Part shown: in pieces, positions 12,047 to 21,027 of the stretch | How the letters are laid out: each line of letters begins with the position of its first letter | How positions within the stretch are numbered: position 1 is the stretch's first letter | NCBI GenBank assembly: GCA_035504215.1 | Contig: DATJSI010000050.1 | Coordinates: forward strand, 8,340 to 72,339 | Source of the DNA: Mycobacteriales bacterium | GTDB taxonomy: Bacteria > Actinomycetota > Actinomycetes > JAFAQI01 | Length of the DNA: 64,000 bases | Reading direction: 5' to 3' | Translations under genes and position numbers: made by a program | Notes under the pieces: generated by a model | The model's database searches: none | Seen by the model: the letters and a program-made list of their open reading frames with translations, nothing else | What the model was told of the DNA's origin: nothing

Positions 12047-12517
12047 TTACCAGCGGTAGTGCGCGAAGGCCTTGTTGGACTCCGCCATCTTGTGGGTGTC
12101 CTCGCGGCGCTTGACCGCGGCACCGAGGCCGTTGCTGGCGTCGAGCAGCTCGTTGGTCAGCCGCTCGGTCATCGTCTTCTCGCGGCGCTGCCGGGAGTAC
12201 ATGACCAGCCAGCGCAGCGCGAGGGTCGTCGCCCGGCCGGGCTTGACCTCGACCGGCACCTGGTAGGTCGCGCCGCCGACCCGGCGGCTCTTGACCTCGA
12301 GTGCCGGCCGGACGTTGTCGAGCGCGCGCTTGAGCGTGACGACCGGGTCGGTCCCGGTCTTGTCGCGACAGCCCTCCAGCGCGTCGTAGACGATGCGCTG
12401 GGCGAGCGAGCGCTTCCCGCCGGTCAGGATCTTGTTGACCAGCGAGGTGACGATCGGCGAGCCGTAGACCGGGTCGGCGATGACCGGGTGCTTGGCAGCG
12501 GGGCCCTTACGCGGCAT
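12047..12517 (-). CDS. rpsG: 30S ribosomal protein S7
   Basis: 156 aa [48 protein letters not shown]... Confidence 0.95.
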
Positions 12518-12520
12518 CGC

Positions 12521-12892
<372 letters not shown>

Positions 12893-13196
12893 TCGCCGTT
12901 CTCCTCGTGCGTGCGGATGGTGCGGTTCGTATGTTTTTGCGCCGATATCCCCGACCCACGCGGTCGGGTGTGTCGCACGCTCCGCGCTCCGCCCGCGCCG
13001 ACCGGCGCGAGAATCTGCTCGGAGGGTCCCGACACCCGGCCCCGCACGTTCAGATGCCCGGCGCAATGAACTCCGGGCGCCGTCACCGTGCTGGTCACGA
13101 GCGTGTCGGGTTGCACGACACAGCGTCCGGATCGCTCCAGACACCGCGTGCCACACTAGCCGAGCGCGAACCGCCGGGTCAAAACCTGCCCGTTGG

Positions 13197-13223
13197 GGGT
13201 AGTGGGTCAGTTTGAGCGGGACG
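13197..13223. repeat. left terminal inverted repeat (IR-L) of the insertion
   Basis: GGGTAGTGGGTCAGTTTGAGCGGGACG; its exact reverse complement occurs at 16348-16374. Confidence 0.8.
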
Positions 13224-13262
13224 TTTCTGGCGATGCTTGACCGCTCACGCTAGCCTTGAAGC

Positions 13263-13415
13263 ATGGCCAAGACAGCAGTAGCGGCCGGCGACCCCGGTGA
13301 CTGGTTCGCGCTCATCCTGATCCTAATCTCGCTCGGCATCCTGCCTGGCAAGTGGAAGGGCACCGTATCGGGCGCGGCGACTCTGTACTGGATTTGGAAG
13401 AGGTTCGGCGAGTGA
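13263..13415 (+). CDS. 50-aa hydrophobic peptide with one predicted transmembrane helix (below ORF-track size cutoff)
   Basis: Hand translation MAKTAVAAGDPGDWFALILILISLGILPGKWKGTVSGAATLYWIWKRFGE. The TGA stop overlaps the GTG start of the next ORF (GAGTGA). Located just inside IR-L. Confidence 0.4.
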   Translation: MAKTAVAAGDPGDWFALILILISLGILPGKWKGTVSGAATLYWIWKRFGE

Positions 13416-13645
13416 CGCCGAAGCGTCCCCGTGACCTGAACCAGCTCGCGGCCAGGCTAGTCGAACTAGCCACCGATCCGGACGCCGAGGACACGCCCGA
13501 CACCGGCAAGGACCCAGCTGCGGTTAAGCTCGGACGACGGGGAGGGCTCAAAGGCGGCCGGGCCCGCGCCGACAAGCTCACCGCGGAGCAGCGCAGCGAG
13601 ATCGCCAGGAAGGCCTCCGCCGCTCGGTGGAAACGCGACCGCTAG
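13412..13645 (+). CDS. small basic protein (~77 aa) with C-terminal K/R-rich motif GGLKGGRARADKLTAEQRSEIARKASAARW; putative nucleic-acid-binding
   Basis: The in-frame ORF track starts at 13352. GTG at 13412 is preferred because a GGAAGAGG RBS lies 8 nt upstream and it is coupled to the preceding peptide stop. The C-terminal motif recurs in many small bacterial proteins (recalled from memory). Confidence 0.55.
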   Translation: MTPKRPRDLNQLAARLVELATDPDAEDTPDTGKDPAAVKLGRRGGLKGGRARADKLTAEQRSEIARKASAARWKRDR

Positions 13646-13694
13646 CGCTGGTAGCATCCCACCGATGTAATTCAATCCGGATGGGGGTGCCCGC

Positions 13695-14471
13695 GTGGCC
13701 AGGACCTCATCCGATGACGCGATTGACCTGCCCCTCCGCTATCCGACCTCTCTGATCCACGTTGACGAGAGCGGGTCACGCGCGAGCAGGGAGCAGTTCT
13801 TCGTTGTGGGCGCCGTCAAGGTCCGCGAGTCTGGCCAACTGGCTCGGACCATTCGTGACGTGCGCGACCGCAACAACTTCGAGGGCGAGTTCAGGTTCAG
13901 CACGATCTCGCGAGGGAAGCTGGCCGTCTACTACGACCTGATCGACCAGCTTGAGCAGTCGGACGCCCACTTCGCGGCGTGTGTGGTCGACCGAAGCACT
14001 GGGGCAGATCCCTTCGCGTCCTCCGTGCCGCCATGGCGGATTCACGCTCGGGTAACAGCGCAGCTCCTGCGAGCGTGCATCAATCGACGCGAGGTCGTAT
14101 CGGTGTTGCTCGATAGCATCTCGACCCCAAAGGGTTGCGCGCTTGACGACACAGTGCGCGGGATGGTCAACACCCAACTGGGACGCACTGCCGTCGTGAC
14201 GGCTGCGTGCCTCAACTCCAGGACCAATGATGGCTTGCAGGTGGCCGACCTCGTCGCGAGCGCCATCGCATTCGACCGCCGCAAGGGGTGCCTTACGAAG
14301 GACAAACACCCCAATTCACACAAAGCTAAGGTGGCAGCGCGCCTTGCCACCGCGTTCGGCATTAGCTCGTTCGATGACGTGCACACCGAACGGGTGAACA
14401 TCGCCACCTACCGCCGGCGAGCGCCTGTGCGGCTCGCCACAGTCGAAAAGATTCCGCGCCTGACTGGTTGA
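13695..14471 (+). CDS. DUF3800-family protein
   Basis: 258 aa. N-terminal LIHVDESG and C-terminal GLQVADLVASAI match the conserved DESG...QxADL signature of DUF3800 (recalled from memory). GTG start. A GGGGG purine tract lies upstream. Confidence 0.6.
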   Translation: MARTSSDDAIDLPLRYPTSLIHVDESGSRASREQFFVVGAVKVRESGQLARTIRDVRDRNNFEGEFRFSTISRGKLAVYYDLIDQLEQSDAHFAACVVDRSTGADPFASSVPPWRIHARVTAQLLRACINRREVVSVLLDSISTPKGCALDDTVRGMVNTQLGRTAVVTAACLNSRTNDGLQVADLVASAIAFDRRKGCLTKDKHPNSHKAKVAARLATAFGISSFDDVHTERVNIATYRRRAPVRLATVEKIPRLTG

Positions 14472-14717
14472 GATTTCTCCGATTCGGGCGATACTCTGTA
14501 TGTGCGGCTTGAGCTTCGGGCTCACATCTGCACGTTCGGGCTTGAGCTTCGGGCTCACGGCCCGGAGAACTAGGGCTTGTAACGGCCTCCCACAGACAAC
14601 AACGACGAAGCGTCTCGTCAGAACTGGCGGGGCGCTTCGTCGCGTCTGCGCGCCCCCACGCAACTGCGAACGCCAGGAGGTTGACTTTCCCTAAGCGGTC
14701 AAGCATAATGGTCAGTA

Positions 14718-15583
14718 TGAACAAGCTGAGTCCGGAGAAGCGAGCGCAGGTCATCGGCTGCCTGGTCGAAGGCATGAGCATCCGAGGCACCGTCCGGACC
14801 ACAGGAGTAGCCAAGAACACCATCGTCAAGCTGCTTGTCGACCTCGGCGACGTCTGCTCCTACGCGGCGAACGAACTGCTAGTCGACGTCGAAGCCAAGC
14901 GCGTCCAGTGCGACGAGATCTGGTCCTTTTGCTACTCCAAGCAGAAGAACGTCCCCGAGGACAAGATCGGTGAGTTCGGGTACGGCGACATCTGGACGTG
15001 GACCGCTATCGACGCCGACACGAAGCTCGTCATCAGCTACCTAGTCGGGGACCGTTCCAGCTACTCGGCGCATCGGCTCATGGAGGACGTGTCCTACCGG
15101 GTCACGGGCCGGATGCAGCTCACCACCGACGGGCACAACGCCTACCTGAACGCGGTCGAGGACACGTTCCACGGCGACATCGACTACGCGCAGCTCGTGA
15201 AGATCTACGACGCTCCCAGCGGCCAGGACAACGAGCGTCGCTATTCGCCGGCTGTCTGCACCGGAGCCGACAAGCGCCGGATCAACGGGCACCCGGACGA
15301 GAAGCACATCAGCACCAGCTACGTGGAGCGCCAGAACCTCACTATGCGGATGAGCATGCGCCGGTTCACCCGGCTCACGAACGCGTTCAGCAAGAAGGTG
15401 GAGAACCTCGCCGCCGCCGTGAGCCTGCACTTCGTGTATTACAACTTCGCTCGGCCGCACCAGACGCTCACGAAGGCGAACGGCGGACGCCCGACCACCC
15501 CGGCAATGGCGGCAGGAAAGGCGTCCCGAGTTTGGACACTTGCCGACATCGTGCGCCTTCTGGACTACCAACTGCCGGAGTGA
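14718..15583 (+). CDS. IS1-family (ISMhu11-like group) transposase, single ORF
   Basis: N-terminal HTH (MNKLSPEKRAQVIGCLVEGMSIRGTVRTTGVAKNTI). DDE region (QCDEIWSF, WTAIDADTKL, LTTDGHNAY). C-terminal ERQNLTMRMSMRRFTRLTNAFSKKVENLAAAVSLHFVYYNFARPHQTL, typical of actinobacterial IS1-family transposases. The ORF track starts at 14681. A TTGACT-17-CATAAT promoter suggests a leaderless start at the ATG near 14718. Confidence 0.7.
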
Positions 15584-15699
15584 CCGGCGAGCCTCCACCA
15601 TCCGAACGTGTGTTCGTCGTAACTTCCCAGGCATTGGAGCCCCGGCGCGGCTGCAACCGCCCGGGGCATGGACCCCATCTTGTAAGGAGATGAGGACGT

Positions 15700-15975
15700 A
15701 TGAGTAAAAGGATCGTCGCCGTCCGCAAGAGTCGGTACGGCCACGGCCACCTCACCGAGGCCGGTATCGGCACGGTTCACGGTCGCCCCGCCTACTGGGA
15801 AGGCGTCGACACGGTGCGAGCGAACCTGGCCTCGCAGACCTACTACACGGTGAGTCCGACGTCGGGAGCGGTGGCCTACGTCCATCGGGTCACCTGCGAG
15901 TGCGGCGTGAAGACCATCCAGACCGACGGCGACCGGTGGCGCGACAACAACCTGGACAACCTGCCCACCTACTGA
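15700..15975 (+). CDS. DUF3892-family small protein
   Basis: 91 aa MSKRIVAVRKSRYGHGHLTE...YYTVSP..AYVHRV...TDGDRWRDNNLDNLP, matching DUF3892 hallmarks (recalled). Strong SD AAGGAG 8 nt upstream. AT-rich leader. Confidence 0.55.
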   Translation: MSKRIVAVRKSRYGHGHLTEAGIGTVHGRPAYWEGVDTVRANLASQTYYTVSPTSGAVAYVHRVTCECGVKTIQTDGDRWRDNNLDNLPTY

Positions 15976-16298
15976 TCAAGGTCCGGCACGATGGACAACG
16001 ACTGGAGTCGTGGCATTTCCGGTCGCGGCTTCAGTTCGTCCTCAGCGCGGTCGGGGAAGGCTGCGTATCCCATCGCGACCGCGATGCAGTCCGCGATGAA
16101 CGGCACCACGTGCTCAGCGGTTCCGACGGGCAGCTCGATTGCGATCCTGTCGTCCAGCGCCAGATAGATCTGTCCCCCCGGTTGCGGCGTCGCCGACAGG
16201 TAGGGGACGCGCCGCCCGCGCAGCACGACCGCGTGCGCCCGGAACGGGCCGATGAACTCCAGGTCGCTAAGCGCCGGGAGGTCAGAGTCGACGCTCAT
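15969..16298 (-). CDS. hypothetical protein (109 aa), convergent with and overlapping the DUF3892 gene by 7 nt
   Basis: ORF MSVDSDLPALSDLEFIGPFRAHAVVLRGRR.... An AT-rich promoter-like region (TCATTAT, ATGTAATTC motif) lies immediately upstream, inside IR-R. No recognisable family. Confidence 0.4.
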   Translation of the reverse strand: MSVDSDLPALSDLEFIGPFRAHAVVLRGRRVPYLSATPQPGGQIYLALDDRIAIELPVGTAEHVVPFIADCIAVAMGYAAFPDRAEDELKPRPEMPRLQSLSIVPDLDQ

Positions 16299-16347
16299 CG
16301 GCGCGATAATGACATCAATGTAATTCGATCCTTGGGTCCGACGCGCC

Positions 16348-16374
16348 CGTCCCGCTCAAACTGACCCACTACCC
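16348..16374. repeat. right terminal inverted repeat (IR-R) of the insertion
   Basis: CGTCCCGCTCAAACTGACCCACTACCC, the reverse complement of 13197-13223. The first mismatch is at the outermost flanking base. Confidence 0.8.
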
Positions 16375-16514
16375 GAACCCGCGGCCGGGCCTTGACCGCG
16401 GCGTACGCCGAGCTCGAGCGGCCCGCCGGGCCAGTGGGCGGCAGGTCCCCTAGCCGAGCGCGGCCAGGCCGCCGCTTGAGCCGGTGGTGGTGTGGGCAAC
16501 GACCAGCGTGACGA

Positions 16515-16847
16515 TCACGACCAGCCACACACCACGAGCTCGACCGACCCGAGGGTGATGCCGGCCAGCGCGAGGCCCCGGCCGCGGTCGCCGTTGTGCC
16601 GGATCTGGCGGACCGCGATGATGCCGAACACCAGCCCGAGGACGCCGCCGAGGAACGGCAGGATGCTCAGGGCCACCGCACAGCTGGCGGCGCCGATCGC
16701 GAACCCGTTCATGCTCGGCCGCGCCGGATACCCGTACGGCGGGTAGCCGTAGCCGACCGGGCCGCTGGTGGCCGCCGCATAGACCGGCGGCCGCTGCCAA
16801 CCGGGCGGGGCTGCGTAGGGAGGTTGCGGACCGGGCTCCGGGGTCAC
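16515..16847 (-). CDS. DUF4190-family membrane protein (Pro/Tyr-rich N-terminus, two TM helices)
   Basis: 110 aa with PPYAAPPGWQRPPVYAA...GYGYPPYGYP followed by AIGAASCAVALSILPFLGGVLGLVFGIIAVRQIRHNGDRGRGLALAGITLG. Confidence 0.65.
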   Translation of the reverse strand: MTPEPGPQPPYAAPPGWQRPPVYAAATSGPVGYGYPPYGYPARPSMNGFAIGAASCAVALSILPFLGGVLGLVFGIIAVRQIRHNGDRGRGLALAGITLGSVELVVCGWS

Positions 16848-16956
16848 CCGTTCAGTGTGCGACAGGGCGGCTGGCGCGCGCCGGCCGACCCGTTCGTCAG
16901 GACGACGAACGGGCTGCCCTCGGAGGAGGACAGCCCGTCTCGTCGTGGGTCACGGC

Positions 16957-21027
<4,071 letters not shown>

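Follow-up and report, generated by a model that had tools for sequence, protein, structure and literature searches.

What occupies the gap between rpsL and rpoC in this 64-kb stretch from a Mycobacteriales bacterium (contig DATJSI010000050.1; all 64,000 nucleotides together are called the window here), and how did it come to lie there? An initial annotation, made from the sequence alone, had proposed a 3.2-kb insertion sequence (IS) of the IS1 family that carries passenger genes between perfect 27-bp terminal inverted repeats. Having compared the window with related loci, we consider it likely that positions 13198-16373 hold an intact IS1-family element of the type with a single open reading frame (ORF) for its transposase, a passenger-carrying IS (tIS), which entered a preferred target near the likely rpsL promoter and later underwent an adjacent deletion of about 1.4 kb. 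The initial annotation had correctly located the rpsL start (12892) and the rpoC stop (16957), as borne out by ORF and translation checks; both genes are on the minus strand.

The perfect 27-nt inverted repeat, GGGTAGTGGGTCAGTTTGAGCGGGACG, was found where it had been reported, at 13197-13223 with its reverse complement at 16348-16374. With up to three mismatches allowed, these were the sole matches in the 64 kb, and none arose in 100 shuffled sequences. Comparison with relatives placed the functional tips one base further inward, at GGTAGTG (13198) and CACTACC (16373); the outermost G:C pair of the 27-nt repeat appears to be flanking sequence or a chance match. Because the 8-bp target duplications of relatives abut exactly these GGTAGTG/CACTACC tips, the element measures 3,176 bp and its passengers lie within the transposing unit. 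Six ORFs were present between the repeats, five on the plus strand (50, 77, 258, 288 and 91 amino acids, aa) and one on the minus strand (109 aa). The G+C content of the element was 63.7%, against 68-69% in the flanks.

The relatives were drawn from 80 loci in many phyla, encoding transposases with 55-66% identity to that of the window, among the matches listed in a genome-wide protein scan. In 70 of the 80, the transposase gene was bracketed by inverted repeats with the near-invariant tip GGTAGTGGGTCAGTTTGA(A), the near-invariant end of the group comprising 19 nt. A perfect 8-bp direct repeat lay just outside the tips in about 58 of these 70 elements (9 bp in two of them). Five closer relatives with 79-81% transposase identity (loci L086, L088, L092, L093 and L094) all had perfect duplications and brought the comparison set to 75. 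The 70 elements were 1,336-6,490 bp long (median 3,063 bp); set against a transposase gene of 0.87 kb, this means that nearly all hold additional DNA. The proposal that the passengers move as a unit was upheld, as in relatives the repeats enclose transposase and cargo together, with the 8-bp duplications on the outside of the entire unit. A metagenome scan with the extended inverted repeat gave three loci in all, which place the window's own 27-nt end at two unrelated soil-metagenome sites (L089/L091 and L090), so the repeat is not confined to this position. Two of the conditions named in advance as refuting the proposal, a repeat present nowhere else and a transposase unlike those of IS1, thus did not hold.

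Three features fit the IS1 family: the homology of the transposase, ends of the form GGnnnTG and, in relatives, duplications of 8-9 bp. The transposase scored 33.3 bits against Pfam PF03400 (DDE_Tnp_IS1), passing the cut-off of 24.1. An identical protein in NCBI, on a metagenome-assembled genome contig of a Mycobacteriales bacterium, is named 'IS1 family transposase'; the PGAP name is likewise IS1 family, and homologs bear this name from both NCBI and JGI, also in plasmid annotation. At least 8,000 homologs were found, and all scored candidates passed E <= 1e-5. The motifs CDEIW, TTDG and VERQNLTMRM..RRFTRL.N.FSKK were conserved in 117 homologs and are intact in the window. Candidate catalytic residues are D66, D138 and E204, within CDEIW, TTDG and VERQN, as assigned by alignment to InsB of IS1. 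No overlapping ORF was found upstream in the -1 frame; the transposase is a single 288-aa ORF, and its own N-terminal region aligns to the IS1 model. Ends in the IS1 family follow the consensus GGnnnTG, as in ISfinder, and the GGTAGTG tips of the window and the 75 relatives fit it. Target duplications of 8 bp, rarely 9, were seen in about 60 of the 75 relatives, and none at the window copy. The IS1-type transposase first proposed from the sequence was thus confirmed by family score, database names and motifs; it represents a divergent branch of the family. The ratio of nonsynonymous to synonymous substitution (dN/dS) was 0.24 relative to L086 which, together with the intact catalytic motifs, indicates that the transposase is under constraint. 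We infer that the window copy may still be active.

A second gene belongs to the element itself. Clustering of ORFs showed a homolog of the 77-aa protein just inside the left inverted repeat in 69 of the 70 elements, with its start usually near position 65. The protein carries the motif KDPAAVxLGRRGGLKGGxARAxKLTxEQRSEIAKKAAAARW, with 24 invariant columns that include ...P.AV.LGR.GG.KGG..RA...... and a terminal ..A...RW. Database searches gave 1,140 homologs at E <= 0.001; the best 120 of these were unnamed or labelled 'hypothetical protein', and none had a Pfam domain. Pfam and NCBIfam returned no family for the window protein. An AlphaFold (AF2) model consisted of four helices in a non-compact arrangement and was weak (pLDDT 71.5, pTM 0.32), and a fold search with this weak model gave no PDB match at E <= 0.001. 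The 77-aa ORF is a core gene of the IS rather than a passenger, and should be read as part of the IS in annotation. The 'four or five unrelated small genes' of the initial annotation therefore stand as far as passengers are indeed present, and fall in counting this ORF among them.

The position of the element was then compared with that of its closest relatives. Elements lie between rpsL and the genes for uracil-DNA glycosylase (UDG) and DUF4190, as in the window, in L086, L093, L094 and one further contig known from its gene map alone. In the rpsL-sense alignment, TTGACC-18-TAG(G/T)GT was conserved in the window, L086, L093 and L094, and the IS tip lay 14-15 nt upstream of it in all four (15 nt from the TTGACC -35 hexamer in the window). 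Conservation and consensus point to TTGACC-18-TAGTGT as the putative rpsL promoter. The 8-9 nt adjoining the tip showed no conservation between the four genomes, and the duplications were perfect within each genome and different between L086, L093 and L094 (AAGATCAG, CCCGCCCC and AACCCTCGC). A single ancestral event cannot yield duplications of this kind, which argues for independent insertions at rpsL. The same is indicated by the cargo, entirely different among the rpsL-site elements, and by a transposase tree that disagrees with the host tree. The window transposase was about 80% identical to, and equidistant from, all others compared; host EF-G identity was 91.9% between window and L086 and 85.5% between L093 and L086, yet the L093 and L086 transposases were 87% identical. 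The small protein of the window was closest (83%) to that of L092, which points in the same direction. We conclude that members of the family probably inserted independently at one preferred position by rpsL in related Mycobacteriales-like genomes. On this point the initial annotation needs amending: related genomes do carry elements at the same position, as independent insertions of different family members, so that the site is favoured rather than arbitrary. The L088 element occupies the gap from tuf to rpsJ, on the upstream side of rpsJ, and has TTGGCA at offset 15.

To place this site in the wider family, we took the 71 elements that fall outside the actinobacterial cluster and examined the sequence from each tip outward, 139 flanks in all. 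TTGAC occurred at offset 14-16 in 19 of the 139, against 0.42 expected (P 2e-25). The duplication tended to begin with C and end with G, and TTG was over-represented at offsets 15-17. With the cluster included, 23 flanks had TTGAC, and 17 of these had TANNNT 16-19 nt onward; of the other TTGAC occurrences in these loci, 9% had it (P 1e-13). It follows that about a third of elements lie some 15 bp upstream of the -35 box of a promoter pointing away, at either end; orientation was near-equal, with 12 left-side and 11 right-side cases. Elements in L026 (Chloroflexota) and L038 (Acidobacteriota) also lie upstream of rpsL. The target preference is a bias, with no strict site specificity. By analogy with the relatives, the transposase would bind the inner part of each repeat and cut at the tips, and the whole 3.2-kb unit would then join into a staggered 8-bp target. 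The family prefers a C-N6-G target with TTG(AC) seven bases past the duplication, and such a choice places the element about 15 bp upstream of the -35 of promoters firing away, here the likely rpsL promoter.

No direct repeat abuts either end of the window copy, in keeping with the initial annotation, and its flanks differ (left ..CCGTTGGG, right CGAACCCG..). Within two bases of the right tip begins sequence that aligns over 34 nt with the end of UDG in L086 (about L086 9177-9210), and the remnant translates to ALTAAYAEL, identical to the C-terminus of the L094 UDG. In L086, L093 and L094, UDG lies between the right end of the element and rpoC. L086 and L094 have a gene of about 190 aa before UDG and DUF4190 after it, L093 having PGA_cap instead of DUF4190. 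Relative to these loci about 1.39 kb is missing from the window, comprising the right copy of the duplication, the gene of about 190 aa and most of UDG. The window copy has no duplication because a deletion next to the IS removed the right copy. The right end would have made this adjacent deletion by intramolecular transposition, and the UDG-fused structure is as expected for IS-mediated adjacent deletion; the same structure would result if the element had recombined with a second copy in UDG. In annotation, the UDG fragment can be read as a deletion scar, and missing duplications in the family can mark IS-mediated deletions. A 13-mer, CTAGCCGAGCGCG, at 13157 and 16461 was considered as a long-range duplication and rejected, as its alignment score of 26 was within the range of shuffles (20 +/- 2.7, maximum 30). 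The left copy of this 13-mer is the -10 region of the putative rpsL promoter.

Several observations weigh against an IS1-family element at a preferred, promoter-proximal target. The NCBIfam IS1 equivalog transpos_IS1 (NF033558) gave 67.8 bits, under its cut-off of 100, and the N-terminal half alone aligned. With no duplication, and no second copy in the 64-kb window, recent movement of the window copy is not shown. A promoter scan gave no call at the rpsL promoter, whose -10 fits the actinobacterial TANNNT form alone. All relatives were found via the transposase, a sample that gives no measure of how often the rpsL site is occupied among related genomes. Neither a homology search with DUF4190 nor exact look-ups of RpsG, EF-Tu and the two forms of RpsL recovered an empty-site allele; all returned the same organism or sample alone. 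Two thirds of the elements had no TTGA at the preferred offset. Flanking genes were heterogeneous (166 families across 122 ORFs), and a general bias toward ribosomal genes was rejected on this ground.

Other histories of the locus can be set against these data. Were the inverted repeat fortuitous or of structural origin, and the genes between its arms an ordinary, non-mobile cluster, the window copy's missing duplication would be in keeping; such a repeat never arose among the shuffled sequences, however, the same tip bounds 75 transposase-containing units with target duplications, and the G+C of the element is about 5 points under that of the flanks, so that we regard this idea as already refuted. 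A single ancient insertion upstream of rpsL, inherited vertically in the actinobacterial group with only the cargo swapped by recombination and no repeated targeting, is in our view quite improbable. It accords with a left junction that aligns column for column in the four genomes, with the closest pairing of L086 and L094 in host genes and transposase alike, and with a synonymous divergence (dS) of 0.76 between the window and L086 transposases, close to that of the weakly expressed host gene DUF4190 (0.63). The site was also occupied in every related locus found, but this is an ascertainment effect, the loci being found through the transposase. Vertical descent does not account for duplications that are perfect but of different sequence in L086, L093 and L094, at least some of which should have been broken at a host dS of 0.34-0.40. 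Nor does it fit a window transposase about 80% identical to all others, whereas EF-G puts the window nearer L086 than L093 is, or a small protein closest (83%) to that of the phage-like contig L092. As to the deletion, homologous recombination between a copy at the rpsL promoter and another within UDG would need no intramolecular transposition of the right end and would leave an identical product: one element with its old left flank and a new right flank within UDG. Consistent with this, TTGAC lies 18 nt from the right tip, outside the preferred 14-16 nt, the junction is no textbook target, and about 14% of family members are likewise without duplications. The window contains no second copy or solo end, however, and adjacent deletion is a classical activity of IS1. 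The data do not separate intramolecular transposition from two-copy recombination, although we consider the latter unlikely.

Independent insertion at a preferred target, our favoured reading of the site, raises the matter of what is recognised there, and we infer the manner of recognition from the flanks. The preferred motif mirrors the repeat's own TTTGA at positions 14-18, at nearly the same distance from the tip. The simplest mechanism would be that the repeat-binding domain also contacts the target and that selection then removes insertions within genes. It is accordingly quite possible, if somewhat short of probable, that the transposase prefers a TTGAC-like half-site resembling its own inner repeat rather than active promoters, with selection leaving intergenic survivors that lie mostly at -35 boxes. 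The mirrored motif, the near-equal use of both orientations and the heterogeneous flanking genes all agree with this. Among about 23 promoter-proximal cases, though, the rpsL promoter recurs in three phyla and rpsJ appears once, above what a five-base motif would predict, and ribosomal-operon promoters such as these are among the most active in the cell. We therefore also put forward, tentatively and with more doubt than belief, that the group is a promoter-seeking transposon. It would land about 15 bp upstream of active sigma-70-type -35 boxes, recurrently at rpsL/rpsJ across three phyla, and would put interchangeable defence or toxin-antitoxin cargo beside essential genes, where it is hard to delete. 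The choice would be made via RNA polymerase or promoter DNA structure rather than a simple sequence match, and the small basic protein may take part in it.

Table. Features of the element and its surroundings in the window
Feature	Position	Strand	Remarks
Complete IS1-family passenger-carrying element (tIS), likely	13198-16373	+	3,176 bp; tips as in 75 relatives
Left inverted repeat (IRL), 26 nt	13198-13223	+	Extra G at 13197 counted in the 27-nt version
50-aa ORF, hydrophobic stretch	13263-13415	+	Candidate gene; sits where the small core gene normally starts
77-aa basic protein, conserved core gene	13412-13645	+	Start overlaps the stop of the preceding ORF (GTGA)
Passenger, DUF3800 protein, 258 aa	13695-14471	+	Pfam PF12686, 35.1 bits (cut-off 21)
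Transposase promoter TTGACT-17-CATAAT, predicted	14681-14709	+	Promoter scan, 10/12 matches
IR-like 12-mer GGTCAGTATGAA	14710-14721	+	Overlaps the ATG
IS1-family DDE transposase, 288 aa	14717-15583	+	Alternative start at 14708 gives 291 aa
Passenger, DUF3892 protein, 91 aa	15700-15975	+	Pfam PF13031, 26.5 bits (cut-off 22.3)
Passenger ORF, 109 aa	15969-16298	-	Called as a gene in two metagenome contigs
Right inverted repeat (IRR), 26 nt	16348-16373	-	
UDG gene, 3'-end remnant	16374-16410	+	Fused to the IRR tip; deletion endpoint
DUF4190 membrane-protein gene	16515-16847	-	Pfam PF13828; neighbour, between element and rpoC
rpsL (ribosomal protein S12)	12521-12892	-	First gene of the rpsL-rpsG-fusA-tuf operon; neighbour, outside the element
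rpsL promoter, putative	13153-13182	-	-35 TTGACC (13182-13177), 18-nt spacer, -10 TAGTGT (13158-13153)

The transposase gene has a promoter of its own. A consensus of TTGACa-17-cATAAT was kept across the 75 elements, in several phyla, and ended 7-8 nt ahead of the ATG, which suggests that the transposase is translated from a leaderless mRNA. The 12-mer overlapping the start codon closely matches the inner inverted repeat, GGTCAGTTTGA, and in many elements the start codon is embedded in such a 12-mer. In a permutation test with 68 elements (L004-L094), the 12-mer was closer to each element's own inner repeat than to those of others (P<0.0005); in L038, for example, GTCCAT occurs in both. This points to the 12-mer as a candidate autoregulatory binding site. 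The spacer between the DUF3800 and transposase genes also contains a perfect 20-nt direct repeat, GGCTTGAGCTTCGGGCTCAC, at 14506-14525 and 14539-14558 (13 nt apart), followed by a long hairpin at 14603-14642.

Cargo was found in two variable slots, one from the small gene to the transposase and the other from the transposase to the right end. In the window these hold DUF3800, DUF3892 and two ORFs of no known family: the 109-aa and 50-aa ORFs had no match in Pfam, NCBIfam, PADLOC or PHROG. The DUF3800 protein matched PADLOC PDC-M04A (E 1.8e-16), one component of a candidate phage-defence system, and PHROG 3732 (E 1e-24); the other four ORFs had no PADLOC match. None of the window cargo had a homolog in any other fetched locus, and neither did the 50-aa ORF. 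Among 145 cargo ORFs in relatives, the most frequent Pfam families were HTH_3 (23), Peptidase_M78 (17), P63C (7), SDH_protease (5) and Fic (4), with STAND/AAA NTPases, methylases, NotI and RhuM also present. In L094, the slot downstream of the transposase (L094:3790-6920, in an element of 5.9 kb) contained a methylase-Mrr/REase fusion, a Mutator-type transposase fragment and a second methylase; such a slot can therefore accumulate nested mobile DNA.

Some of the related loci had unusual structures. At L089:6895-6924 and L091:2897-2926, one locus seen in two metagenomes, the end is identical to that of the window over 30 nt, and no transposase gene was detectable in the 6.9 kb inside it. This end may belong to a very long element or a transposase-less derivative, or be a solo end. 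At L090:1179-1225, a right tip is joined without a gap to another repeat in the opposite orientation (CACTACC/AGTGGGTCAGTTTGAA, the slash marking the junction); such a repeat-to-repeat structure is expected after tandem or nested insertion, or in a circular or dimer intermediate. The L092 element (L092:935-4343) shares 80% identity with the window in its transposase and 83% in its small protein; it has a perfect duplication, TAGACCTC, and carries P63C and Peptidase_M78. It lies among some 25 short ORFs that all point the same way, a phage- or plasmid-like setting that is a possible vehicle of transfer.

Around the element, the window RpsL shared 98% aa identity with the rpsL product of L086, and Rfam gave no RNA family match within 12400-17000. 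The DUF4190 gene is apparently frameshifted near its 3' end: the ORF ends at 16515, and the +1-shifted frame runs on as VWLVVIVTLVVAHTTTGSSGGLAALG, followed by a stop, to 16462. This shifted frame (window 16462-16560 region) resembles the C-termini of the L086 and L094 homologs, and the break is either a real frameshift or an assembly error. Metagenome contig L001 is identical to window 12636-16617; in the alignment of L001:31-405 with window 12509-12635, 24 positions differ, and these concentrate in the 3' end of rpsL and shortly past its stop. In L003, a 96%-identical strain of the same sample as L001, the contig breaks inside rpsL. This pattern suggests strain mixing or chimeric assembly at the locus.

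Taken alone, the locus would be annotated in the ordinary way as an IS1-family element with passengers; the comparison is of wider use. It defines a coherent and very large group of elements with a near-invariant end, two slots for cargo and a core gene that had no name before, and a measurable bias to the upstream edge of promoters that makes the rpoC-rpsL gap a recurrent landing site. A limited literature search gave nothing specific on ISMhu11, on IS1-family elements with passengers or on promoter-directed IS targeting, and no paper on the group's small core gene or its promoter-proximal bias. Passenger-carrying IS are already an established kind, and the promoter-proximal target preference may be unreported. 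Most worth pursuing are the bias in target choice and the recurrence of independent insertions at the rpsL promoter.

Among IS1 elements, ISfinder distinguishes single-ORF and ISMhu11-type subgroups that reach several kb, with passengers, the ISMhu11 subgroup spanning 0.9-4.6 kb. The window element resembles these in its one long transposase ORF, its length and its passengers, and may belong to the ISMhu11 subgroup. The window transposase is 24-31% identical to those of ISDge2 and ISDge3, IS1-like elements named on plasmids. Classical E. coli IS1 shares the catalytic motifs (CDE.W, TDG and ERxNL....R......FSK), G/C at the ends of the duplication, a small gene adjoining the left end and, as inferred for the window, adjacent deletion. 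E. coli IS1 encodes InsA and, by a -1 frameshift, InsAB', within 768 bp. The window element, in contrast, has no such two-ORF arrangement, extends to 3.2 kb with its cargo, and has an internal promoter and a repeat-like site over the transposase start. Its small basic protein, unlike InsA, has no Cys motif on inspection and belongs to no Pfam or NCBIfam family.

The tIS concept (PMC7986276) describes elements with one transposase and terminal inverted repeats whose passengers are mobilised as a unit, for example ISDsp3 of the IS6 family. The window element agrees with it, as DUF3800, DUF3892 and two further ORFs lie within the repeats and the duplications of relatives flank units with wholly different cargo. 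It differs from tIS such as ISDsp3 in transposase family, and the group differs in having two defined slots, filled mainly with HTH-Peptidase_M78, Fic, toxin-antitoxin, STAND NTPase and restriction-modification-type genes. In function, its repeated, non-disruptive insertion at a fixed distance from a conserved feature of an essential gene is analogous to that of Tn7 at attTn7 (downstream of glmS) and of Ty3 at RNA polymerase III promoters. Unlike for these, no TnsD-like or other dedicated targeting protein was identified for the group, and the bias is partial, at about one third. Should the bias stem from recognition of active promoters, it would help to explain how small defence and addiction genes settle by essential operons, and would provide a rare bacterial counterpart of eukaryotic promoter-targeted integration.

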